IMG/VR virus record: IMGVR_UViG_3300031867_000003
Coordinates: 96,001-160,000 of that record
Source of the DNA: a virus
Taxonomy: Duplodnaviria > Caudoviricetes
Strand: one strand, 5' to 3'
DNA: 64,000 bases
Shown here: positions 2,440 to 61,282 of the stretch, one piece after another
Layout: each line of letters begins with the position of its first letter
Numbering within the stretch: the first letter of the stretch is position 1
Made by a program: the position numbers and the translations under genes
The notes under the pieces: generated by a model
Told to the model about the DNA's origin: nothing
Seen by the model: the letters and a program-made list of their open reading frames with translations, nothing else
The model's database searches: none

Positions 2440-2966
2440 GATGCCACACTCCCATAAGTTGCATTCTCAATGCTGATTGCGTATGTATAACCGGATTCAA
2501 TCACAAACCATTCGGGCATTTTGACAGTTGCGGGAAGAGTAAGAGTCGGAACAGTAGTACCGGCAGAAAATATTACTTCAGTGACACCTTCGCTTGGAGG
2601 AGTGAATGTTAACGAAGTAACCTCACCACATACATAGCGAGTGTTGGGGTTAGCTGTGATAGTAGGAGTAGTTCCCGTCACATTTATTTCAATACCGTCT
2701 TGGAAGCTATCGGCTACTACAGCTTTAACATCGGACTCGGTCTAATAACCGGCTCCGTTAGTTAACTGATTATTATTAGTAGGAATTGCCGCTTCAACTC
2801 TGTTAATCTCATCATCAACGTAAGTAGTAGTAGAATAACCGGCACCGTTTGTTAGTTGATTATTATTAGTGGGAATCGCCGCGTTAACTTCGGTAATTTC
2901 CCCATCTATATATTGTTTTGTTTTCTAAAGAGATGCTTGCAATTGATCTAATGTCGTAATTGCCAT
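2427..2966 (-). CDS. Small tail-fibre-associated protein (179 aa, TAG=Gln)
   Basis: ATG at 2966 with GAGGTG RBS; two in-frame TAGs; tandem IPTNNNQLTNGAGY repeats; joins ORF 2427..2681. Confidence 0.75.
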
Positions 2967-3004
2967 TATTATTCACCTCATTTCTTTAATAATTAATTAT
3001 ATAA

Positions 3005-4221: not shown

Positions 4222-6294
4222 TTAGCTGTTTAATAGATTGTGCATATATCCATTGTATGCAATACCAAACGCTTCATAACCATACTGTGACGGATGCACG
4301 TTATCTGTATATACAGTTATCTGTGTTGGATTGTTGTATGTTGCATTAACTTGTGCTGTTACAAAATCATACATATTATCAAGATTAAGATTTTGATAAA
4401 CAATGTTTGCATTTGTATATGCGACAACCTGATTGTAACGGAAGCAAGCTAAATCAAATTCTTGATTATTCTGCATATACTTTCCTGTTCCGGTGTTATT
4501 CGCTGCAACATTACTTCCTACCATTACCGTAATTATTATATCAGCATTATAACTATGTATGCTGTTAATAATCTGTTGCATACGAGGTATTATGCTTGTA
4601 GAAAAACCATTATTTCTACCGAGTAATATATTAACAATTTCAACATCGTTAAATGATGTGTTGTTTGCCATGTAATAGCTAAAATCAAATGTTTGTGTTG
4701 TAGGGTTGTAAAATGGATTTGTAACACCACCTTTTGATGCAGAGAAGTAATCATTAACACTCCACCCGTTTCGACCTTCATGCAAATATGGTGCTGTTCC
4801 TCTTGATCCATACAATGTGACTTTTCCTTCATTGTGGTCATAAAACCATTTTTGAATATATTCGGCATTTGTGTATGAGTCACCTAAGAAAAGATATTTT
4901 TTAGGTGGCAATTCTGATATATTGCAATGAACAATAATCTGCTTACTTGCCACTTGTATTCCTTCTCTTTTAAATTTTATGGTTACGGTGATGTTTTTGG
5001 TTGACCTCACATTAAACTGAATATATCTGTCAGAGTATGTTATCTCTGGATAAGTGGCGCCTGTTGCTTCTACAACAAAATATCCATCATTTGCACCTCT
5101 GCAAAGTTCGTTGAAATATATTCTCTGTTGTACATTGGTTATATATACATCGGTTAATGGTAAGAACCTTATAATGCCAGAAGTTCGCATAATGCACGCT
5201 TCCTCTATTTTCGTTGATTCTATTGTAAGTCCTAAACCATTGGCTAATGTTATTTTGGACCAATCAACAACTGCTTTTGCAAGAAGTATGTTGTTGCTGT
5301 CGTAAATATATACTGTTTCAGTCGGTAAATCATTTCTGGAAGGTCTTGGAGCAGACACATAAATTCCGGTTCTTCCGCTTGTGCTTCTAATCTCCATTTG
5401 CGATGTATGCTGACTGGCATGATAAGCAAACAGTGCAGACACGTAATAATCGTCGTTATCATCCGCATATACCACTAAATCCTCTATCCCATTTTGTTCC
5501 CTTGAGTATACAATTTGTGCTGGGTATCCCGGTCTGTATAACGTAGAATCAGCAGTAAAAGGGTATATTCCTTGCGTTTCAAGAAAAGAAGCAAGCTTGT
5601 TTAGTGTAACAAGATCATTGTTTATCAACTTTACAGATGCAAACAAGGAAGCATTTGAGGGGGTATAAGCGGAAAATGTCGGGTCAATAATACCATTATA
5701 TCGTATCATTGGTCTAAAAATGACATTATCAAACGTTCTGTTTGCAGTAGTGTAAAACCTAAGTCGATAAAGTCCTGTATATGGTGCTGTAAAAACAACA
5801 TCAGATGGACCATTAACGGTGGCAACTATATCATTTTCTTCAGTTAGAATCTGCAAATTCATGTTTGCCTGTCCACCATTAAGAATGTATTGTTCATTTT
5901 CTATAAGATTGACTGTTTGAACATTTGCATATAACTTGCCTGTAGTGGTCCCATTTACGGTATATGTCCCATCTGAATTTGCTATTATTGATAATCCCAC
6001 TACAGACGGACTATTATATGTTGATGGCTGTAGCAGGTTTTTTGCTCCCATTTTATTCTGATACACACTTAAATCTGCCTTTATCTAAGATACATCATCG
6101 ACAAGTTCCTAGTAATCCGCCGGCGCATCTCCGCCACCGGTCGGTAAATTTTCCACGGTCTCAGTAAGACTATCTAAATCCGTTTGTAGCTGCCCAACGT
6201 CAGTATTGAGCGATTCTACTCCGGTTTCTATATTATTCATTTTATTGGCAGTGATGATATCTCCATCACTCCATGTAGTTTTCGTATAACTCAT
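4222..6294 (-). CDS. Tail-associated protein with C-terminal SGNH/GDSL hydrolase domain (690 aa)
   Basis: ORF 6109..6294 joins 4222..6066 through two TAGs (APADY*ELVDDVS*IKADLSVYQNK). FLGDSYT, LLGRNN and DNVHP SGNH blocks. Confidence 0.8.
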
Positions 6295-6307
6295 ACCAAT
6301 CCTCCTC

Positions 6308-8305
6308 TCATGAGAATACCTAATTCAACATTGTTGTTACAGAAGCATCGGTTGCTATGTCGGCATCCGTTAGGTAGCCGGTTAAATCAACTTTGGTGTC
6401 ACCAATCTATTCGAATTTATCTCCGGTGTAAATATATTCATAAAAGATATTATTAGTTGTGGCAATAGTAGCAGTACCAACTTGTGCTGTTCCGGTTATT
6501 GAATTGTTATCAATCCCTGTGTCGCCAATTGGCTTTGGCACAAGATAAATTACTCCAAGTTCGCCGGTTAATGTCGGGATGTAGGTAGTTGAATTATATT
6601 CACCGGGTTCGCAAACGTGATAGCGAGTGTTGACGAGATTATCTATTGCACTAGATATATCTGAGGACGTTGCGAAGCCTAACATAGTTTTGATGGCAGT
6701 CTTAGCTTCATCAGTATAGGTTCCTACGGCATTTGCGGATGCCGATTGAGTTGTATCACCGGCTGCTTTAGCTAAACCATAGAAAGTTGCAATATGCTAC
6801 CGAGCAGTATTAACTGCATATTTCGTATTATTGCCAAGCTTTAGAGAAAGATCTGTAGGATTAGTAGGCGATAGTACACCATTAGAATCAACATAAATCC
6901 CATTGGTAGAAACCACCTTTACTACCCCCGCTTTATTACCTGTAGCAATATCATCAAATGTCACATAATTACTCAAATCAATATCCAAAGTTCCAAGCCG
7001 TTCATACTTATCCGTAATCCAGATGTACTCATCAAAAACATCATTCGTCCCATGAGTGTGAGCAACCAGATAAATCACGCCTTTAGTTCCGGTAGCCGGG
7101 AGTTCAGTAACAACCTGGAATTCAAAACTGGTTATATCACTGATAGCGTCGGCGATTGCTGAGTCAATTCCTAACATAGATTGGATTGCGGTTTTTGCGG
7201 AATCGGTATATGTTCCGACAGCATTGGAAGATTGACTCTGTGTTGTGTCTCCAGCTGCTTTTGCGAGGCCGTAAAATACAGATTTATGTTGCTGTGACGG
7301 TACAATCGGTCTGAAATTATTAGTGCCATTATGGCAATCGTTATCTTCTGCTTTTACAACAGCAATAAATTCACTCCCACCAACTTCCAATCCGTATGCT
7401 CTATTTGTTTTTATAACACCTGCCGCATTGGTGCTAGAAATCGGAATATTAGCCACCTTGTTCTCAAGTATGCTCGTTCCGTTAACCTAAACATCATCAA
7501 CCTTACCAGCTTCACCAAATTCCCATGAAGTTACCTTGCCGTCGGAAACCGTCTTTGGCATCATAGCTTTACCGACATCAGTAGCAGTAGCGGTACCATA
7601 CTGGAGAGTATCTTCTTTAGTAGCTAATCCATTGGTAAGTTCTGTAGTAGTAGCATAAGAAGAATCATTCTATAGCTAACTAACCTTAGTCGGAATACTT
7701 GCTTCAAGAGTATCAAGTTCTCCGTCAACGTACTATTTGGTAGCATAATCACTATCATTCTGTAGTTGACTGGTTTTGGTCGGAATCGCCGATTCAACGC
7801 CAGAAATTTCGTCATCAACATAACCTTTGGTTGTGTAGTCACTATCATTGGTCAAATCACTTGTCTTAGTCGGAATAGTGCCGGAAAGTTCCTCAAGCGC
7901 TTGAGTCATTTCTTGGGCAAGTTGATTATCTGCGTTATCAAATTCTTGTCTAATTGCAGTAGCAGTTTGAGATAACGACTAGTTAACCTCGGCAATCGCA
8001 TCACCGGTTGCTTTGGCATCAGCGGATTGTCCGGAGTTTGTCAGTGTTGCATCCACAAGTGGGATAGCAATGTTGACATTCTTTTGGTCAATAGCTTGCG
8101 CATTGCCATTGACCTGGATTGATTCTATTATGTTCTCCTAGGCACCGGATTCGATTGATTCCAATTTAGCCACATCGGCATCCGAATAGTTGTTATCGGA
8201 CAATGACTTCCCGGGTTCTTTGTCAACCTTTGTGGCTAATTTCTCCTTCATGTAGGTAACCAGAGTACGTACTCCGTCAAAAGAAAGAAATTTTGGTTTT
8301 GCCAT
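6308..8305 (-). CDS. Fibre-like virion protein (665 aa, TAG=Gln)
   Basis: ATG 8305 with RBS; KVDKEPGKSLSDNNYSDADVAKLESIESGA*ENIIESIQVNG motif; IPTKTSQLQND repeats; same frame as ORFs 6797..7456 and 6407..6685; ends TGA. Confidence 0.8.
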
Positions 8306-25806: not shown

Positions 25807-28800
25807 TCAGTGTCCGGCTTTTCTCATATCTTTAGCTATTTCTTTGGTAGTATAGTTATAAATGTTCTTTTTAAATGATGCATTGCTCATTAATCCCTTG
25901 GCAATTTCTTCTAACTGTGGCACTATGGACTGATCCGCGTTGCCGTCAATTCGAATAAGATTGTCATAGTGGATGGTGATGTTCTGATTTGTGCTATGAT
26001 TAATATTATATTCCGGTGTCTGGAAGTTAGGTGTCTAGACAGGCACCATTCCAGATTTAGCCATAGCCATAAGGTTCTCCGTAAGGTCTGCCGGGATAAC
26101 TCCGTCTCCGGCTTTTAACGGCATTAACATTACACCACGACGGGTGATAATAGCTTCCGGACCCTTTTCGTTGATTTGATAAAGCCCCGGCTTCGCGGAT
26201 TTCGTTCCTTTCGCAAGACCGCCACTAAGATATTCTTCTCCTAGTTTACCGCCACTGAAATCACCGTTTATGAGTAATTGTCTAAACATGTCATTAAGAT
26301 CGCCGACCTGCTCGCTGATTTTTGTCGCCTCGGATTTCATAGCTTGCCAATAGTCGTATTCTTTTTGAGAAAGATTATCTTTATAAATGTCTAATTTCTT
26401 GCGTATATTACTGCTACTAAGATTAACTCCTTCAACATATTTATACTATACATCGAGATCTTCTCCGACCATCTATGGAACACCCATATTTTGTTCGCCC
26501 TAGAAGGCATCGGGGTGGAACGACTTAAGATAAGCATTAAAAGAAGCATTTACGTTACCAAGTGAAGCTTTAAGGTTAGTGGCAGAATCAACTACAAGTT
26601 GTGCCGCATGGTCAATATTTATAGATAAGTCTTTTACAAACTTCTCATAATTTTCTTGAAGTTTTGCTGAAAGATCGGTTAATCCGTCAATACGGAGATT
26701 TACTATATGATCTTTGACAGTGTCATCAAGTTCTTCTTGCATTTCCGCACGTTGTGCTTCAAGGCGAGCCTTTTGAGCACGGCTCTCGGCATCAGTTCAT
26801 TTATATTCACATGGTTCGCTACACCATGCCGTGTGAGATATAACCAATGGTATATCCACACTGCTCATGCTTTCACATGAGATTAGACTATATCATCTAT
26901 GGAAATTTTCCATAGTCTGTTGTTTCGAATTGCCAGCTTGCAATCCTACGTCCCTACACTCATCGGGACTAGTCGTTGAACGTTTCCTAGTATGTCTAGA
27001 ACTTCGCTGCTGATTGCCCAATATTTATCATTTTTAAACTATCGTAATTATTTATTATCACTGTAGTGATAAATCTCTAAGGGTTTCCCAGCAATTAAAC
27101 AGAATGCCCAATATAATTAGGCCATTTAGTGCGCGGATTTGCTGTTCGATAAGCTGCACATCTTTATTTTGCTTGCGTAGTTTCTTATCGTAATCGTACA
27201 TCTCTTTCTTTTTATTTATCTCATTTTTCCGGGCTTCAATAAGTTTGTTAATATAAGTAATTTCTGTTTGATACCTATCGGTTACATCCTTAATAATCAC
27301 CTGTCTCTGAGACGCGAGAGAAGTAATTACATCGCGAGATTGCGCTTCATATTCTTTCATTTTGGAGTTATATGTTTCTATATCAAGAGACGGATCTTCT
27401 CTTAACCGATTAGTAAGCACTTGTTGAGCTGTTCGAATTTTTGTAAACTAATCTTGTAGCATTTTATAGCTACGAACATCCATTGCGTATTTTGCAGTAC
27501 CAAGTTCAGTAAAGGTGCCGTCGGTCGTATACATCATTTCCGGAGAAATTGTTCCTTTGAGCTAATCTAAGGCTTTATGTACGGTGTCAATATTTTTAAT
27601 CATATCTTCCAAAGGTTTGAAATATACATCTTGCCTCATATCATCATATAAATTATTGATTTCTTCATCTAATTTATATACTTCTATATTAGCCTTTTGT
27701 ATATTTGCCATCATTGCTTTGTGCGCTTCGGAGTTCTCCAGAATTGTTCCGGCTTTAACATAGCTATCTAATAACTCCTGCTGGGCTTTCGCCTAATTTG
27801 CATATGCTTTTTGAGCGTCTTTTAATCGGTCGATTTGTCCTTCATAGTTGCTCTTCAAAAAGTCAATCGAAGAGTTCTTCTTGATAGTTGCTTTTCCGGA
27901 TTGATCATAAGAATAGCTAATTCCGTCAGTCAGTAATGTCGTGCGAGGTATATTGGTATTTCTGACGTATTCTCCGTCTTCATTCTTAGTAGCAATATAA
28001 TATCCTTTATCTACCGAATAAACAACTCTTGATTCACCGACTTTTTTTCCATTGGTCTTGAATGTCGGCTATGTGCTATTAAGTTGGTCGGGAGCAATAT
28101 AATATCCGCGTTCTTTCCATACTTTACGTATTTCTTCGCGGCGATCCGCCCAGGTTTTGGATAAATTAACGGCCGCTTGATACCAAGACTCGATATTATC
28201 CATCTTTTCCTATGCGATCTTTTGCTCGCGCTCTGCAACTTCAACCGCAGACTAAATGAGTTCTTCCCTCATTTTTTGCTCTTGTTCTCTGGCTTGACCG
28301 AGAGCGCCGGTAACATTTTCCAATGATGCCGTAGCATTATTCCATAACGCAACCGCCTCCCCAAGTTCGTTAGACACTCTTGTCGGATCTATTTTCCAAC
28401 CGTTATTTAAAGCTTTATTAATAAAATCTTTTTCTGATTTGGAAGCCTTTTTATACGCGTCATTGCTCAATATAGATTTCTTTGCTTTGTCGGATTCTTT
28501 TTTTAGCGAAGCCTATTGAGATGCAAACTGGGTTGTTATTTCCTATTGTTCCTCTATAGCGATCCGGCGCTTTTTCAATTCCTCTTTCAGCTAACGCATT
28601 TCCTTATCAATGTTTTCATTTTGCGCTATATAACTCGGCTTATTAAGAGAGCTTTCCATAAGTACATTAGCCTATCCATAAGAAGTGTCTTGTAAATTTT
28701 TCAATTCGTTTTTGTCGGCTCGGTTCTATTTTCTAGCGGCCTAATACGCTTTATCCGCACTATTCTTGGCGGTTTTGGCAGCTGCTTCTTTTTTGATTTT

Positions 28801-31800
28801 ATTATTGTAATCATCGACAAGCTTTTTGAAATAAGGCCCCCTATTTTTATTATATGGAATAAGTTCACCTTTTTTCATTGCGTTTAGTATTGAATTTTTA
28901 TCATTCTTCGAAACTTTTTTATTTGCTTTAAGATAATTTTCTAATTCAGTTTTGGATTTCTATGTTAAATCTTTGCGGCTTTCATATTTACTTTTGGCGT
29001 CATTATAATTCTATAACTTAGTGGCTCTGTCAGCTGTAGACTTAGCTACCACATCTTTCTATGCTTTTACCCCCGTGGCAAATTCTATCCAGCGCTGCGC
29101 AGACGCAATGCCGGATTTTCCGCCGGAAATTGCACTTGTTATTCCGGAAATAGTATTGATTCGGTTCTCAATTTTATCAAGCGCCTTCTCTAGCTTTTCG
29201 GTCGGTAGCTAGATAATCTGGCTCTGAAGATCTCTCATTGTATTCGCAAGTTCTTGTATCGCATTATTTGCGTCGCGAGATTTATTAATATAATCGAGAT
29301 ATGCGCGAGCGCCTTCAACAAAAGCGGCCTAATTAGGATTGGTCGTCTCTATTTGTTCAAGATTATATTTGCCTTCAAGTAAATCTTTTTGATTAAATTT
29401 GCTCCAGATATTTACTGTCTGTTTGTTTCCGTCTTTGTCCGTATAAACATAGGCTTTTGCTAATTCTTCGGCGAAATTTTTGTATGTCGTCGCGGCGCGA
29501 GAGTTGGCTTTAATTTCATTCTGGAGTGCGGTAACTTCGCTGCGAAGAAGTTTCCCCTTAGTTGCGTTGGTCACATAATCGGTAATCTTGTCGGCAATTT
29601 TCTTCGTTGCGTCAGCAAAATACTGAAGACGAAGTTCAACGTAATCGAATATTTCTTGGGAGAATTGAGGTTTATCGGCATTGTCATTGTTATTATTTCC
29701 GGCATTGTTGTTACCGCCACCACCGGTACTTGCTTGCTAATTGCCACTACCGACATTTACGTTGTTATTATTGCCGGTAACAGTTACTCCGGATTGCCCA
29801 CCACCGCCACCGGTCCATGTAAATGTTCCGCCGCCATTACCGGCATGAGCATTCATTCCATTAACTGTCCCTTTCGCAAATGCGGATGAGCCGCCAATTA
29901 TACGTGCGTGGCTAGATGTACGACCTTGTTTAAGAAGATCTTCCGTTTGTTTGTGATTAAATCATATATGTTTTTCTCAGTTCGCTACGCTGAGAAGGAA
30001 TTATTATAATTCCCTCATAGTTTCCTATGAGATCAGACTATATCATCTACTCAAATAGAAGAGTAGTTTACCGTTTCAAGGGTCAATAGCTTACCCCCTA
30101 CATGATAGTCGTTGAACCTTATTCTATTCGAATCTTGGCTGCTGATTACCAAATAATAATATTTTAAAAACTTTCACGATTATCTATATTTCATAATTTC
30201 GTTGTAGTTATTATTCTCTAATGGTTTTCCAGCAATTAGATAAATTTTTCAATGTATGTTGCCATACAAAGTCGCATAATTAATACGACGTCGCCCCTCT
30301 TAAGGTTTTCTATATGTGGTCCACCAGGAACGAGGAACCATTTGCCGTTTCTTATGATTGATTCCGTTCCCAATTCATTAATCAAGCTTTCTTGGTCTTT
30401 GTCTATTGCGATGTCACCTTTTGCATATCCACTCATATCTTTGTAGTTAAGCATATTATATGCGCTACCGGATTTTGCTACCTTGCCTTCTTCGTCAAAC
30501 GTGCCTTTTGCATAACCTCGCCCTATTGATGAGAGAGTACCAGAATATGAAGCAGCATTTTCTGCTTTACCAGGTTTATTAACTTTGCCAGGTTTATGCG
30601 AAGCACTAGAACTTGCACTCTAACTTGGCTTCACAACAGTACCAGTAACAGTAGCACTAACATGGGCACTAATACTAATGTTGGCAATCATAGCACGAAT
30701 TCTACTTACTGCACTTTGCGCAGCGCTTATTGCCCTATCTGCATTACCGTCAATTGTGATTCTGGCGGTTCTTCCATTCGCAGACGCAACCGCTTGATTA
30801 ATCGCACTAATTGCGCCAGAATTATTGCCATTAATGGTAATTCTACCGGAACTTGAGTTAGCATGAGAAACCGCAGTAGCTATTGAACTCATTGCCTAAG
30901 AGTTGTCTCCACCAATTGTAATTTTGGGGTTTGCATCTTCAACAGTGGAGACCACTTCTTCCACAGAAGAAATAGCCTACTCATTATTAGCCTAAATATT
31001 TATAGGTTCAGAGGCAGATGATTTGATATTATCAACCGCAGTTTGGATTGCCTAAACCTGTGAAAGAGCGCCGGAAGTTGTTATGTTTAATGCTATATTC
31101 TGGGCAGCAGCTTTAACTCTGTTAATTAACCCAGATAATGCACTAATCTAACCGGCTGCCTAACTGGTATTTGCAGTAGTTGTAACTGTTTCTGTTTTTG
31201 TTTGCGTCTAATCTTTATTTCCGCCAAATAAACCCGAAATAGCATTTTTTGCTTTTTGAATTACTTCAACTATAGTAACTTTTTTTGTCGCTGGTTTTTC
31301 CGCCTATGCTTGAATTTCATCCTAGCCGGTAGCTTCAAGTTTAACTTCCTTTGTGTACTCCTCGCCATTAATCGCAGCACTAACAGCTTCATTAATCCCC
31401 TAGAGAGAACCCTCGTCTAATTTGACGGGCATAGATATTTCTTTTCCGTCAATAGAATTAATCATTGCTTCGGCGGTTTCCACATCAGATGTATCTATGT
31501 CCAAAGTGGCGGAAAGAGTTCCATCATTCATCGATTGCTATAATTCTTCTAATGAACCGCCATCTTCAAGATACTGTTCTATTGCAACTCGCACGTTATA
31601 CTCCTGTTGGGTCTTTGCTTCAAGCTATTCAAGCTATGCAAGTGCTTCTTGTCCGCCTTCTTCTTCGACATTGATTTGCGCTTTCATTTCGGATATTTCA
31701 GCTAATTTATTCTAAAGTTCATCAACACTCATCGAAGCGGCATCGAATTGAGTAGCCCCCTCGAATTGAGTACCTTTAAATAATGCTTCAACCTTGTCGG

Positions 31801-37800: not shown

Positions 37801-40800
37801 AGATTGTCTTAAGGGATTGGCCAACCGTGAGAGGATCTTGAAGGACGGCATTTGCAGCAGTAGTAAGAGCCACAGCTTCGTCAAATGAATCCGATCATGT
37901 TAAAGATAGTTCGCAACGCTATCTTAATTTATTGATAAACAATTATCAATCTTTATCTATCAATAAATTCTTTACCTTTCGGCAAAGTCCCGACTATTTC
38001 TTCACCCTCACCATTACGTGGAGGGGCATACCTTTTCCAATTCCATTTGCGATTGAATTGTACAATTAGTCTGTGAACGTTTATCTTCAATTAAAAAGAT
38101 ACTTCGCTGCGCGATCTACCAATTCTTATTTTTTAAGACTATCATAAACAATTGCTTGCTTATTGTAGTAATAAGACTCTAAGGTTTTACCCGCAATTAG
38201 ATATGTTCTTATAATATATTTCTATATTATCGGGCAATTGTTTTTACCCGTTACTTGTAATGTACCAGCAGATTTCTGAAGTGACTCAGCTAACTCTGAC
38301 GTACTGATTGCGTAGTTATTGCCTACGTAGTTTAACTTATCGATGATTTCCGATTTATCAAGATCTTTATACGCTTGGCTCATTGCAGTTAATGATTCAG
38401 TTGCAGCATTAATGTCTTGGAATTCCGACACATTAAGAAGTACAGTTGACAATTCCGCACTTTTTTGTGCCTACTCAAACGACTCGCCCAGTCTTAACCA
38501 ATCCGCAGTACTTTCTTGAATTTGTTTAGACGTTGTCCCGACGCGATCGGCAGCCTCAAAGCTTCCGTGTTGTGCAAAATCTTTAAGAACACTAAGTGGC
38601 TCGTCAGACACTTTTCGCATTTCCGTGAGGGCAGTGTCAAGTTCTCTGACGATATTTACTCCTTGCTTGGCAATATTGATTACTTCATACAAATCCGCGT
38701 ATGTAAGTAAATATCTCGCCATTCCCTTGAACGAACCTTTAAGAGTCTCACCAAATGATTTGCCGACATCTCCGGCTTCCGTAGCCTAGGTTTTTATCCG
38801 CTCAAATGCTGCGGCGATTTCATCAAGATTACCGGCGGACGCACCATTTATTGCGTCTTGAAGGTTTTGAATTTGTGGGAAGTATTCAGTGGCAGCGGAA
38901 TTTTTATACATCCACTCTGACATACGGCGATTGAGAGTAGCAGCATCTTTTTCGTCGGCGGGAGAGTAATACCCTCCACTAGATCGTTGAACTACGTCAT
39001 TCAATCTGCCTCTAAAAGATAATACCTAAGCCTAAATCTAGTCACGTCTATCGGGGGTGGCTTTTTCATATTCCCCAGATATTTTAACCAAATTTTCAAA
39101 CTCTTCGTTTAAATCATGCAGAACGTTTACTCCATCTTCATTCCAGTTTCCATTGCCTAATTTTTGAAGAACTTCACCCATTTCCTCAAGGCTGTCGGTA
39201 AATGCAGACGTCTGCGCCTCATTCATAGTGTCATCAAATTGTTGTCTTAATTGTTTTAACGCATCCGATGCCTCACCTTGTGCGGTGACGAAAAGTCCAG
39301 TTTTATTTATCGCATTTTCATAAAAAGTTCCATATCTGTTTAAAAACGCCTATTCAGAATAATCCAACATCTATCCGTTTCTCTGCTTTTCATTAATTTG
39401 CGCATAACGCTCTGCATACTTAATAAGTGTTTGATATCCACGCTCAACATTTTCAAATTCATAATTCTCATTATCATTAAATGCGGACATCCCTGATTTT
39501 AAAACGTCCACATCTGCCATTTTTTGTCTATAAGTATCAAGAGCCGCATTAGGAACAGTCCCATCGTTTCTCTAATTCAATTTGTCAAGCGATTCATATG
39601 CTTTTTCTGCTTCCTCGCGATACTTTTCCATTGTTTTTATCGCCTGTTGTAGCTAATTGGCGCTTATCTCTCCAAGATTAAACATATCCTATGCATTAGA
39701 GGCTCGCTTTGCGGCATCATAGTATTGCTATATTTTACCGGCCTATTCACCGACATATTTAGATTCAGTAGCCTCCCATTCCTTTGCCAATCTGGCATCA
39801 TGTGAGGCAATAGCTCTATCTAAATCATCTCTGGATTTATAAGAACCATCTTTCGAAGTTACCCATTTGTCTAAAGCAGAGTCTGTCTATTCCTATGTAA
39901 TTTTCGATGCTTCCTTAAATTCATATATTTTTTCTATCGCTTCGTCCGCAGCTTCTGCTGTATCTTCCATCATTCTGACAATAGAACTTTTTACATTGTC
40001 CGGAATCACTTGCCCTTTTGCCTCATCTGTCAACATTTTATTATACGTATCTCTAGCTTCAATTGCCCTTTTTATTATATTAATTTGCTCTTCATATTCA
40101 TCCTTATTCTTTTTATTCACTGCAGCTGTTTTTTTATCCTAGGATTGTGCGGAGCCATTTTGAGCAGCTTCCCACGCTTTTATCCCTTCTTGATATTGCT
40201 CATCTGTAATATCATCTTTTATAGCCTCTAATTCACGCTTCGCGTCAGCAGCTTCTTGATATGCTTTTGTTAATCTAGAAACGGCCTCAGCCCATTCTTG
40301 TGTTTGTTTAATTTCAGGATTAGACTCGGCTTTTGCCTCTAGCTCATTCATTTTAGTTCTAGCGTTAAATAATTCTTTAAATTTATCAGTTTGTTCTTTA
40401 TAAAAATCACTAATCGTTTTATTTCGTTTTTTATTATCATCAGCTTGTGCCTTACCCTATGCCTCATAACGCTTACGCCCCATATTATATTCAGTGTTAC
40501 GCGCTTTTTGATATTGCTATTCTTCCATAGCGATTGCCATAGCATCTGATTTTTGACCTTCATATTCAGCATTTACATCCTTAAAACGTTGTTGAATAGA
40601 TCTTAATTTATTATTAAATTCCTCTAGGTCTTTGGATTTAAGATTGGAGCCGATATTTTTTTCAAGATCACTCAATTCTTTTTCTAAATCTGAGGTATCT
40701 ACATTAGACTTCTACATCTTACGCATGGTATTATGTATATCAGTAGTTAATTTATCTTTGGCAGCTGTTATGCTATATGGATTAAACTGAGTGTTTGCCT

Positions 40801-55879: not shown

Positions 55880-57098
55880 TTATTCGTCTTCCTCGTCATC
55901 TTCAACAACATAGATGCTATAAAGTCTCTTATCAGCGTCGCAGTAAGAAACCTGAAGCTGTCCATTAAAGTCGATAGTTTGGTTGTCGGAACTCAGTGAC
56001 ACTTCGCTTTCCGGCGATACCTGGAAGGACGGAATGTCGATATATGCTGCACGAAGTGTATCTGCGGAGCAAGGATCGACACAAAGAACCTTGAGAATAA
56101 GACGGATAGTTCCCGGGAACTTATCAGCTTTATTAATCATCTCAACAGCACCAGCTGTTGCGGCTGTGCCGTCAAGTTCACGATCATAACGAATCATGTA
56201 CTGAGTATAATCGTTGCTAAGCGGAAGAGTAAGAACTCCCGTCCCATCATCATAAGTAAACGTAGAAGCTGTAGCACTACCACCAGTCTGGAATGCAGTA
56301 CCAAGAGTACCGTTGTTCTCCATGCCATATACCTTCGGAGTGCCGGTTACATATTTAAGAGTAACTGTCGGACCATTAGATGCCTTAGCAATTGTGATAC
56401 CAGGTGCGGTAATTTTATGATTTGCAGTAGCCTCAATTTTACCGGAACCCGCTTCAGAACCAAGAATATTAAGATTAATGAAAGCGTTAGTTGCGGTAAA
56501 CTCACCAGTTTTTGCTCTCCAGAAACGTTTCACGAGGTTGCCGTCTTTATCGGTAACATCATTAGATTCTGCGGTAATATTAAGAGTAGCTTCCTAAAGC
56601 TAGGTGAGTGTATAGAGAACGTTGCCGTCAAAGTCTTCAGCAGTTGCGACCTGGATACGGTCAATAATCAAATCCTAGTTTTCTTAAAAAGAAAAATGTT
56701 CACATGGGGTCGCTAGTCCCATGTAGTTCTCAAATGAACTTCTTATTGTTTCCAATAAGTACAGACTATATCTTATTCTACAGCATTACCTGTTTAGACC
56801 TAACCATTTCGAGAGTCAATAGCTTACTCCCTACTTTCTCTTATGAGAAATAGTCGTTGAACCTTACCTTACGGTCTTGGCTGCTGATTGCCCATTGTTA
56901 ACGGTACTTAGGATTTAACCATATACCATATAGTAATTTTTTTCTACTTTCGTAGCTCTCACGTATATATCTATTAGATATTGCGTTGTAGCTTCACTAT
57001 CTTTAGGGGTTCCCAGCAATTAGATTAGTTATTATAATTATGACATATACATATTTCTATATATGCTGACTAGATTATTAATCAAGCTTGAATGCCAT
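55880..57098 (-). CDS. Major tail tube protein (270 aa after splicing; exons 57098-57081 and 56674-55880)
   Basis: AAAGGAG RBS; spliced MAFKLD-DLIIDRIQVATAEDFDGNVLYTLT*L*EATLNITAES...; position after neck genes; followed by a GC-rich hairpin. Confidence 0.8.
56675..57080 (-). ncRNA. Group I intron in the tail tube gene (406 nt, ORF-less)
   Basis: P1 UGAU/UA..UAGUCA; core AAUUGCUGGGAA, AAUCAGCAGCC, GGUUCAACGACUA, GAUAUAGUCUG; terminal G. Confidence 0.9.
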
Positions 57099-58545: not shown

Positions 58546-61282
58546 TTACAACGCAATGATTTCAATTGGCAACGAAGCAATTATATCTTCGCCGTCAACT
58601 TTATATGTTACAGTAAGTATTTTGCCGATATACGAATCGTCTCCCAAGAACTTAACCTTAACATGATTATCTATTACAGATAACGTCAGCAATTCTTGTG
58701 GAACAGAATTCCCGTCTATAGAAAATTCCCAAGTACCGGGAAGTGTATCTATCGACGTACCGTCTTCGTCGGCAAATACCACGGTGAATGTTTTGGCAGA
58801 GCCGCCTATACGAATCTGCTGTTTACCTGAGCATGTAATTGTAGTAGTGGTAGTGGGAGTTGGGATAATATCATCTACCGGAACAGCCGGAGTAGGTTCT
58901 ACTTCACTAGCTTTCCAATCCGCCCACCAAGCAACTACATTGCCATCAACATCATAATCAGCTTTAAGTGTATGTTGATTAGCAAGATCTTGCGCACAAG
59001 TAAAAATCGCAATTCCTTTAGAATTTGAACGATTTATTTTACTAATCTAAAATACGCGAGGTTCTGTTAATACGTTGGCATCTATCACCAAGTAAGTGTT
59101 ATAATATAAATGTTCCGTATCACGATTTAACGGAAGACAGAACTAGGTCTAGTCTTCTGGTTGCTAAAATTTATACATATACGTTACTTTATCAAGTCGT
59201 TAATTTGATAAAGAATTATTTAATTCATTTAAAAAAGCCAAATACTTAGAATGTTTTCTTTCTAAATATCTATTCGCATCATAGTATAACCAATCCATGA
59301 TTTTTATTACATTCTTTTTGCTTAATGTTTGAAGAACGGATGTAATATCATTTTCCTCTGGATGAGCGAGTTGAAGACTTAAATTTACACCTAATTTATT
59401 TTGAAATATTTTATTAACACTATTACAAAAATCAAATGTAGATATTATCTTAAATCCACACCTTAAAAGCCCATTATCTTGAAACGTATAAAAACTTCCG
59501 TCCCCGTCAAAATAACCCCTTATAAAATGTGAATGTAAAAAATCTGGAATGTCTGGGAACGTCAACATCAAACTTTTGTTTTGAACCATTCCTTGCTCTA
59601 CTAAAGAATTTGATAAATGTTTACTTGATAGTTCTAAGCATATCTATGGTTTAACATTATCAGCTTTTATTAATCTATCTCCAATATACGAATCTCTTTT
59701 AATAATTTGTCGCAGTGGTCTATTAGATCCTATATCTTCACTAAATTTTTCTATTATTTCACGATCATCAATTTGTAAGTCTAAATGTATCGCATTCCTA
59801 GGAACATTATTACAACCATCCGCATACAATAATCCCAAGTAATATGCCTTATCTTGGGTATCTATTATATCAAAATACTCTTCATTTAATGAATATTTTC
59901 TACGACCAGGATTCTTTATTCCTAGATTAATAAATAATTCAGATATAAATCTCTAGCTAACATTATTTTCTTCAGATAATTTTTTAATAGATTTCCCAGA
60001 CTTATATTCATCGATATGGTTATCAATATTCTCCAAAAACAATTTTCTATTGTATTTTGCATCTTTATTATACATATAATTAATCCTCCTTCAAAAGATA
60101 TAATGTATGCTATAATAAAAACAGTAATTTTTATGTTGAAGGCATAAAAAAACGGTTTGCAACCCGCTGTCCTGTTTTTATTCAAAATGATTAAATAATT
60201 TTTCTTATACTTTCATATAAGATCGGACTATATCTTTAACCGCAATTGCGGTTACTTCCCACTGGACTTACTTGAGCCACTTAGTCTCTGAACTTTACCC
60301 TCATCAAGTCTTAGCTGCTGATTATCCAATATAATATATTTTTTGACTATCACGCTTAGATGTATCTCATTATTACGTTGTAGTTATACTATCTCTAAGG
60401 AAGTTCCAGCAATTCAAGAAGTTTTCATCGTATTATTACTAATACGTGCGACTATTTCTAATCGAGCCATAATCCACTCATTATGTTATCATAAGGCTTT
60501 TTATCCTTATCTCTTACTGTCGCCAGTAAGATCAGCATATGTTTTCTCCATATCATTAACTTGACTTAGGAGTCGGACACTCGTGGGAATATTATATTTA
60601 TTCAATTCCTATGCGTTACAATACTTCGCAGCCTTTCGCTATCTGCGAAGTTATCTCGGCGTTGTCTACGAGAGAGTTCCACCGATTTTGCCCGATTTTC
60701 ACTCATAAGTTTCCTTATAAGGCAACAATTTTTATTGTAAGAATTTTGGCTCCTGCTGACCCCAGGGAACTCATAATATTTCCCATCTTTAATCCAGCGG
60801 AACACTTCGTCACAACGAAGTACTTCCCAAGTCGGAAACATATTTTCATCCCGGTCAGCTGTAGCAACCACTAACCATCTACGGTATATGTCATCTTCTC
60901 CCTTTAGCCAAACATAAAGACCAACTGGATATCTAGCTCTATACCGCTTACCAAACACTTCTTCGTAATAATCAACACCGCACTCATGACCTGGTCTAAA
61001 CTAAATATGCATAGTCTATTCATCTTTTTGAAATGTCTTAGAACTATGTGCAATAAATTTCACATCTATAGGGGTTGGATTTGTATCCTCTTCCGGGTTA
61101 AATCCTTCAAGACGAAGTCTATTCTGCGGCGCGGTATGGTAGTAATCGAAGAAATATCCAACCTAATACTAAACATCCTATGCAAACGTAGCATCCATGA
61201 TTACATCACTTTGCTACTTCCTCGCCCTCCCCGGTACACTAATATTATTGTGCATTGCCTAAAAATCTCTGTAGGTAATCAT
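58546..61282 (-). CDS. Putative head-closure/neck protein (398 aa after splicing; exons 61282-60734, 60478-60461, 59175-58546)
   Basis: Spliced GVSRSQNSYN-SGLWLD-YKF*QPED*T*FCLPLNRDTE; many TAGs; exon lengths 549+18+630. Confidence 0.78.
59200..60075 (-). CDS. Intron-encoded double-motif LAGLIDADG homing endonuclease (291 aa, two TAG=Gln)
   Basis: KAYYLGLLYADG and FIRGYFDGDG motifs in one frame; AAGGAGG RBS. Confidence 0.88.
60085..60182 (-). promoter_or_regulatory. Structured leader RNA (three-way junction with anti-RBS loop) before the LAGLIDADG ORF
   Basis: Outer stem AAUAAAAACAG/CUGUUUUUAUU, hairpin GCGG-GUUGCAAA-CCGU, hairpin UUUUUAUG-CCUUCAA-CAUAAAAA; loop is complementary to UUGAAGG of the RBS. 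Confidence 0.65.
60479..60733 (-). ncRNA. Compact group I intron (255 nt, ORF-less, different subtype)
   Basis: P1 CAAU/AA-AAA-UUGUUG; core AAAUCGGUGGAA, AACGCCGAG, GUAACGCAUA, CAUAUGCUG; terminal G before SGLWLD. Confidence 0.82.

Follow-up and report, generated by a model that had tools for sequence, protein, structure and literature searches.

The stretch of DNA analysed here (hereafter, the window) comprises 64,000 nucleotides (nt), bases 96001–160000 of a 202,175-bp IMG/VR virus entry judged complete (IMGVR_UViG_3300031867_000003), and contains on its minus strand a 398-codon virion gene split into three exons by two group I introns, A and B, which are separated by an exon of only 18 nt. 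The introns occupy neighbouring points within the codons of a conserved motif, NSYNSGxWxD, which is an insertion hot spot; intronless alleles and alleles with a single intron are found at related loci. We consider it likely, with a probability of roughly 85%, that the gene was invaded twice, independently, that the two introns splice separately and that the 18-nt exon is retained in the product. The phage is uncultured and TAG-recoded (TAG = Gln), and the open reading frame (ORF) analysis of the window showed that the minus-strand genes are open only with TAG as an amino acid. All coordinates given below are positions of the window unless another locus is named, and all the features of the gene lie on the minus strand.

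Exon 1 (60734..61282) is an ORF of 183 codons, seven of which are in-frame TAG codons read as Gln, and it ends with the residues SQNSYN (3' end AGC CAA AAU UCU UAC AAU). The micro-exon (60461..60478; AGUGGAUUAUGGCUCGAU) encodes SGLWLD. Exon 3 (58546..59175), of 209 codons plus a stop codon at 58546, is also open under TAG = Gln, begins with YKFQQPED (5' end UAU AAA UUU UAG CAA) and was matched by tblastn in all the relatives described below. The exon lengths of 549, 18 and 630 nt are each divisible by three, all the exons are in phase 0, and the reading frame and the use of recoded TAG are unbroken from one to the next. Intron A is placed at an Asn|Ser codon boundary, and intron B at an Asp|Tyr codon boundary. 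A gene of this kind, in three pieces because of two introns and with recoded TAG codons in addition, is invisible to gene finders, and dozens of fragments from the family that are interrupted exactly at the motif are present in public protein sets.

A search of IMG/VR with exon 1 yielded seven related loci, referred to here by L numbers; exon 1 was 78–95% identical to those of L001–L006, with the highest value (95%) for L001. Exon 1 also matched PHROG 5251 in a profile search, and no match to it was obtained by tblastn in the phage collection of GenBank. Two of the related loci, L003 and L006, are intronless and carry the uninterrupted sequence SQNSYN-SGLWLD-YKFQQPED, which corresponds codon by codon to the predicted ligation product. 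Since both loci read through continuously, the 18-nt exon is not a chance assignment, and the initial annotation, which had placed an 18-nt micro-exon between group I introns of 255 and 1285 nt, is borne out by them. The minus-strand letters at 60461–60478, AGTGGATTATGGCTCGAT, translate to SGLWLD, in agreement with that annotation in both coordinates and letters, and all 18 bases are identical in L003. Furthermore, in L001 and L002 only the upstream intron (A) is present, and the same 18 bases are joined to exon 3.

The conservation of the encoded residues leads to the same conclusion. A comparison of the intronless L006 protein with 1.84 billion representative proteins yielded 406 matches, in which R-x-Q/R-N-S-Y-N-S-G-x-W-x-D was the best-conserved block of the family, found in all of the approximately 65 full-length homologues. 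The earlier suggestion of aligning homologues around SQNSYNSGxWxDY thus gave a clear result: an SGxWxD segment is present at this place in each of them. The PHROG 5251 alignment also spans the junction in the intronless protein.

Intron B (59176..60460) is 1285 nt long and consists of a core (60460–60204), an endonuclease cassette and a 24-nt 3' tail. It follows the exon U at 60461, and its tail ends with GUAUAUG, the terminal G being at 59176. The match with the Rfam group I intron model RF00028 (60481–60204, full model 1–253) scored 80.6 bits, well above the gathering score of 50. The paired region P1 of intron B (60449..60464) is formed by exon CGAU and intron UA, a GAAA loop and UAGUCG, with the wobble pair U60461.G60452, and it appears in the local minimum-energy fold. 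The 5' splice site is further supported by a compensatory change, since the pair between exon position −4 and the guide is C-G in the window and G-C in L037 and L071. The exon U is thus in a P1 U.G pair and a G stands at the 3' end, following the splice-site rules for group I introns, and the first bases of exon 3 (UAU) can prolong the guide pairing as P10. The initial annotation had assigned the P1 strand of this intron to the SGLWLD exon, and it is indeed the last four nucleotides of that exon (CGAU) that pair with the B guide. The core of intron B is 71–79% identical to those of the introns of L037, L071, L005, L007, L010, L064 and L082, and L008 has an ORF-less B-type intron with the same core and tail at the Asp|Tyr site.

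The ORF in intron B (59200..60075) sits after P9 and a leader and encodes a LAGLIDADG homing endonuclease of 291 aa with two in-frame TAG codons and an N-terminal helix-turn-helix-like region. The protein matched Pfam LAGLIDADG_3 (23.9 bits, cutoff 22.5) and PHROG 4645, annotated as "endonuclease" (E 1.7e-51), its translation contains two motif-like stretches (LGLLYADGC and IRGYFDGDGS), and it is 33–40% identical to the endonucleases of seven related introns. We infer that the acquisition of intron B was driven by this endonuclease. The initial annotation had suggested that the neighbouring intron may disrupt the target site of the enzyme. A typical LAGLIDADG site extends over about 20–22 bp; intron A, inserted 18 bp from the B insertion point, probably lies outside such a site.

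Intron A (60479..60733), also of group I, is 255 nt long and lacks an ORF. It follows the exon U at 60734 and its 3' end reads CAUAAUG, so that the terminal G lies at 60479. RNAalifold analysis of the three aligned copies (window, L001 and L002; the L001 copy is about 95% identical to that of the window) recovered P1, P2 with a GAAA loop, P3, P4, P5, a long P6, P8, P9 and P9.1. The predicted structure contains 73 pairs, nine of which show compensatory changes on both sides among these three sequences only. P1 (60723..60737), read from the sequence and the RNAalifold output, pairs exon CAAU and intron AA with UUGUUG and includes the wobble pair U60734.G60726, and P7 was found by eye as a GCAUA/UAUGC pseudoknot; an extra hairpin lies between P7 and P3'. 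Intron A thus combines covarying helices, and the P7 identified by eye, with a U.G wobble at its 5' splice site and a G as its last base. The SGLWLD exon had also been described as the 3' exon of this intron, and the sequence agrees with this: the first three nucleotides of the micro-exon (AGU) can pair with AUU beside the A guide, extending the guide pairing as a short P10.

Several observations on intron A and on the double allele weigh against the interpretation proposed here. Intron A scored 33 bits with RF00028 (E 5.7e-6, 60744–60513), below the gathering threshold; this low score is attributed to a P7 that departs from the usual phage sequence, and the L002 copy of the intron reached 47.9 bits. 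The three copies do not differ in P7, which thus gains no support from covariation, and P10 extends over only about 3 bp. A 6-bp hairpin is predicted at 60469–60485, in which the intron bases CAUAAU pair with AUUAUG of the micro-exon (bases 6–11) and the terminal G is placed in the loop. If formed, it could affect the choice of the 3' splice site of intron A; it is present in L001 and not in L002, and we gave it little weight. Finally, a search of IMG/VR for the exact pattern made of the 3' end of A, the 18 nt and the 5' end of B returned no second contig carrying both introns.

The two introns had initially been assigned to different subtypes. Sequence comparison detected no significant nucleotide similarity between A and B, and they therefore belong to different lineages, so this part of the proposal stands. 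The assignment to different subtypes is less well founded, as both introns have the extra P7–P3' hairpin, a feature that we take to be associated with subgroup IA. In the sequence of events that we propose, two such lineages would have entered the gene independently at neighbouring points in the codons of NSYNSGxWxD, and the six codons between the insertion points would have been left as the 18-nt exon. The exon-1 bases CAAU would pair with the guide of intron A, which would reach only the first three bases of the micro-exon, and the last four would take part in a local hairpin formed by intron B. Each intron would be a complete group I ribozyme with its own splice sites, so that the two could be removed independently and in either order, and the product, exon 1 joined to the micro-exon and exon 3, would be the same protein as that of the intronless relatives. 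We infer accordingly self-splicing of both introns in vivo and independence of the two reactions. Double occupancy would thus have arisen as a side effect of insertion at a contested hot spot and would not be a device that needs coordination.

The relatives and the read-through protein fragments (P numbers) revealed at least five insertion points in the motif codons, all in a span of about 25 nt. The Asn|Ser point, at which intron A is inserted, is occupied in the window, L001 and L002, and is indicated by fragments P0061, P0072, P0090 and P0100. A second point, inside the Tyr codon (U|AY), is used in L005, L007, L011, L012, L064 and L082, and a third, after the Ser-Gly codons, in L004 and in fragments P0025 and P0117. 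The second intron of L007 (RF00028, 27 bits) interrupts the Leu codon (CU|U). The Asp|Tyr point of intron B is occupied in the window, L008, L010, L037 and L071; in L010, L037 and L071 a B-type intron is the only one present, and that of L010 has an ORF for a LAGLIDADG protein with a helix-turn-helix. Many database fragments start with Met followed by YKF, in agreement with the presence at the Asp|Tyr site of an intron whose last bases are AUG. Introns homologous to B are found at two points 23 nt apart, so the B lineage has changed site. An alignment of 66 sequences was too diverse for locus finding, and a closer alignment was used. Our count of 73 "contiguous" cases out of 80 was obtained with two search patterns, one of which lies in the motif, so that intronless genes are favoured in this value, which should not be read as a frequency.

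A further allele with two introns, independent of that of the window, was identified in L007 (IMGVR_UViG_3300021399_000115, 5548–7082), in which an endonuclease-bearing intron, a 19-nt micro-exon (6812–6830) and a 252-nt ORF-less intron follow one another, at insertion points that differ from those of the window. The spacing between the introns is therefore about 18–19 nt in both alleles.

The exons of the window gene are themselves mosaic around the insertion sites. A divergence patch (59021..60764, introns excluded) covers ~31 nt at the 3' end of exon 1, the micro-exon, and ~155 nt at the start of exon 3. In this patch of about 200 nt, centred on the insertion sites, the window is 76% identical to its closest relative, L001, as against 93–94% in the other coding sequence (Fisher p 1.3e-10), and 88% identical to L003, as against 75–79% elsewhere. 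Such a mosaic fits gene conversion accompanying intron movement, and it may be taken as an indirect hint that the endonuclease cuts the intronless allele at or near the insertion site. A broader reading, which we put forward tentatively and consider rather unlikely as a whole, is that the ~30 nt encoding NSYNSGxWxD are a landing pad contested by several intron lineages. Intron A, which lacks an ORF, might be maintained by being carried along in the gene-conversion tracts of neighbouring introns driven by LAGLIDADG enzymes. It might also, with the Ser|Tyr-codon site 5 bp away, destroy the target of the endonuclease that homes at that site. Stable double occupancy would then be reached only at a spacing of about 18–19 nt, as found in the two double-intron alleles, at which the endonuclease targets and the P1 and P10 pairings would be kept intact.

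Coordinated or alternative splicing has also to be considered: the introns might interact, so that the order of splicing would matter, or the micro-exon might sometimes be skipped, yielding a functional isoform without SGLWLD. Skipping has been reported for Twort orf142, Coxiella 23S ribosomal RNA (rRNA) and an engineered 24-nt exon (PMC10136302), as well as in phage SIOphi (PMC11878797), and every exon of the present gene is in phase 0. Nevertheless, we regard this possibility as distinctly improbable for the window gene. A and B are unrelated in sequence, which speaks against the "single large ribozyme" mechanism put forward for introns of a comparable kind, and for the B guide CGAU is a better pairing partner than CAAU, the end of exon 1. 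The initial annotation had stated that the order of splicing must be coordinated, on the grounds that the micro-exon serves both introns; this finds no support here, because the predicted pairings are located at opposite ends of the exon and do not overlap (bases 1–3 with intron A, bases 15–18 with intron B) and the P1 of intron B folds locally on its own. In a 111-nt local fold, P9 and P9.1 of A adjoin P1 and P2 of B (z = −4.9). The natural alleles also oppose coordination: besides genes lacking both introns, there are genes in which A is the sole intron (L001 and L002) and others in which a B-type intron is (L010, L037 and L071), so that, whichever intron is removed first, the intermediate corresponds to a naturally occurring gene with one intron. 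As for the suggestion that skipping would be in-frame, the arithmetic is right and the Twort and Coxiella cases provide a precedent. The shortened protein would nevertheless lose the near-invariant residues G184 and W186, and in-frame skipping is not a conserved property, since in L007 the 19-nt micro-exon has phase 1 and phase 2 borders and its skipping would shift the frame.

An even less probable alternative, that the 18 nt are not an exon, the 1558 nt being one composite intervening sequence or the gene a decaying pseudogene, could draw on the score of intron A, below the Rfam gathering value, and was rejected: the joining of exon 1 to exon 3 would remove a motif found in all full-length homologues, the 18 nt are the same as in the intronless L003 allele, each insert has its own P1 with a U.G pair, its own terminal G and a complete core, and the frame and the use of recoded TAG are intact in all three exons.

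The survey of relatives provided further observations on the introns of this family. In the Tyr-codon introns of three independent contigs, L005 (~6811), L007 (6811) and L012 (~632), the predicted 3' splice site follows an A rather than a G, as demanded both by restoration of the Tyr codon and by a P10 contiguous with P1. All the alternative junctions with a terminal G that were tried for these three loci were rejected, as they led to a frame shift, a TAA codon, or the gain or loss of a residue. The G-binding pair in P7 remains G-C in the terminal-A introns, and the homologous introns of L011, L064 and L082 have a terminal G. In L004 (IMGVR_UViG_3300021400_000138, 5553–6521), a 969-nt insert after the Ser-Gly codons of the motif has a group-I-like start and no RF00028 match. 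Within it are a promoter-like site, two ORFs, of 60 aa and of 119 aa, the latter for a PemK/MazF-like toxin (Pfam 23.6 bits, cutoff 23.1), and a match with the skipping-rope RNA (RF02924, 43.5 bits) above the threshold for that family, and it is possible that this insert is an intron carrying a toxin-antitoxin pair rather than an endonuclease. L008 has two group I introns (2350–2681 and 2735–3002; 65.4 and 53.8 bits) about 53 nt apart; this close pair sits in another gene, downstream of the homologue of the gene studied here. Read-through after YPVGL (~residue 123) in fragments P0020 and P0122 suggests a second insertion point elsewhere in the family. There are nine RF00028 matches in the whole phage genome and five above the threshold in the window, four of which lie outside this gene on the minus strand (26864–27128, 30014–30294, 37970–38255 and 56742–57093). 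No transfer RNA was found in the 64-kb window.

The protein encoded by the interrupted gene is tentatively a virion neck or tail-junction protein, an assignment that comes from structure prediction. The AlphaFold model of an intronless homologue had a confidence (predicted local distance difference test, pLDDT) of 90.9, and its residues 295–396, which correspond to the C-terminal part of exon 3, adopt an immunoglobulin (Ig)-like fold (Z about 9–10). A structural search with the whole model was swamped by this domain. The N-terminal 290 residues gave middling matches (Z ≤7.7), mostly with phage neck, stopper and terminator proteins, and the best Foldseek matches were with the lambda tail tube protein V, with low template modelling (TM) scores. 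A profile search of PDB sequences with the protein yielded only matches at chance level. The NSYNSGxWxD motif is located in the least confident loop of the model (pLDDT ~57–79, residues 181–200).

Short exons flanked by group I introns have been described before, in Twort and Coxiella as well as in Bacillus phages and in mitochondria. The layout of the window is real, but it is a further example of the arrangement known from Twort and Coxiella and involves no new mechanism. Its value lies in the allele set, in which intronless, A, B-type and A+B alleles, together with insertions at three more points in a span of about 25 nt, make up a natural test set. Comparison of these alleles could reveal the way in which self-splicing introns and their endonucleases compete for a single conserved target, and whether skipping ever occurs with very short exons flanked by group I introns that are unrelated.

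The nearest counterpart is orf142 of the Staphylococcus phage Twort (Landthaler and Shub 1999), in which an exon of 23 nt, flanked by two similar IA2 introns, can be left out or retained (PMC10136302). As here, it is a structural gene of the phage tail region with several group I introns, a pair of which flanks a short exon (PMC10136302, PMC11878797). The Twort introns are highly similar to each other, whereas A and B are unrelated, and the exon is of 23 nt rather than 18 nt; the present phage is also TAG-recoded, and one of its introns carries a LAGLIDADG gene that is itself recoded. The question whether the short exon is skipped or kept arose for Twort as well; splicing has been shown there and is predicted for the window gene. 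In the 23S rRNA gene of Coxiella, a 34-nt exon lies between introns of different subgroups, and skipping has been observed (PMC10136302). Group I introns of different kinds thus flank a very short exon in both cases, but the Coxiella gene is a bacterial rRNA gene rather than a phage protein gene. Its intron Cbu.L1917, which is reported to lack a terminal G, recalls the terminal A of the L005, L007 and L012 introns, whereas both introns of the window end in G. The Bacillus phages with short exons, phiNIT1 among them, are cultured phages with the standard code, and the genes concerned are involved in DNA metabolism or packaging, unlike that of the window. In mitochondrial genes of fungi and placozoans, the mini-exons that separate group I introns can be as short as 3 nt or 1 nt (PMC8971849). 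They resemble the present case in that conserved coding motifs are densely invaded, and exons far below 18 nt are correctly spliced there, but in organelle genomes and often with the assistance of proteins. The crAss-like phages described by Yutin et al. (2021, PMC7886860), which are large and uncultured, have both a recoded TAG or TGA and numerous group I introns, with LAGLIDADG genes that in turn contain recoded stop codons; micro-exons as small as that of the window are not described in that study.

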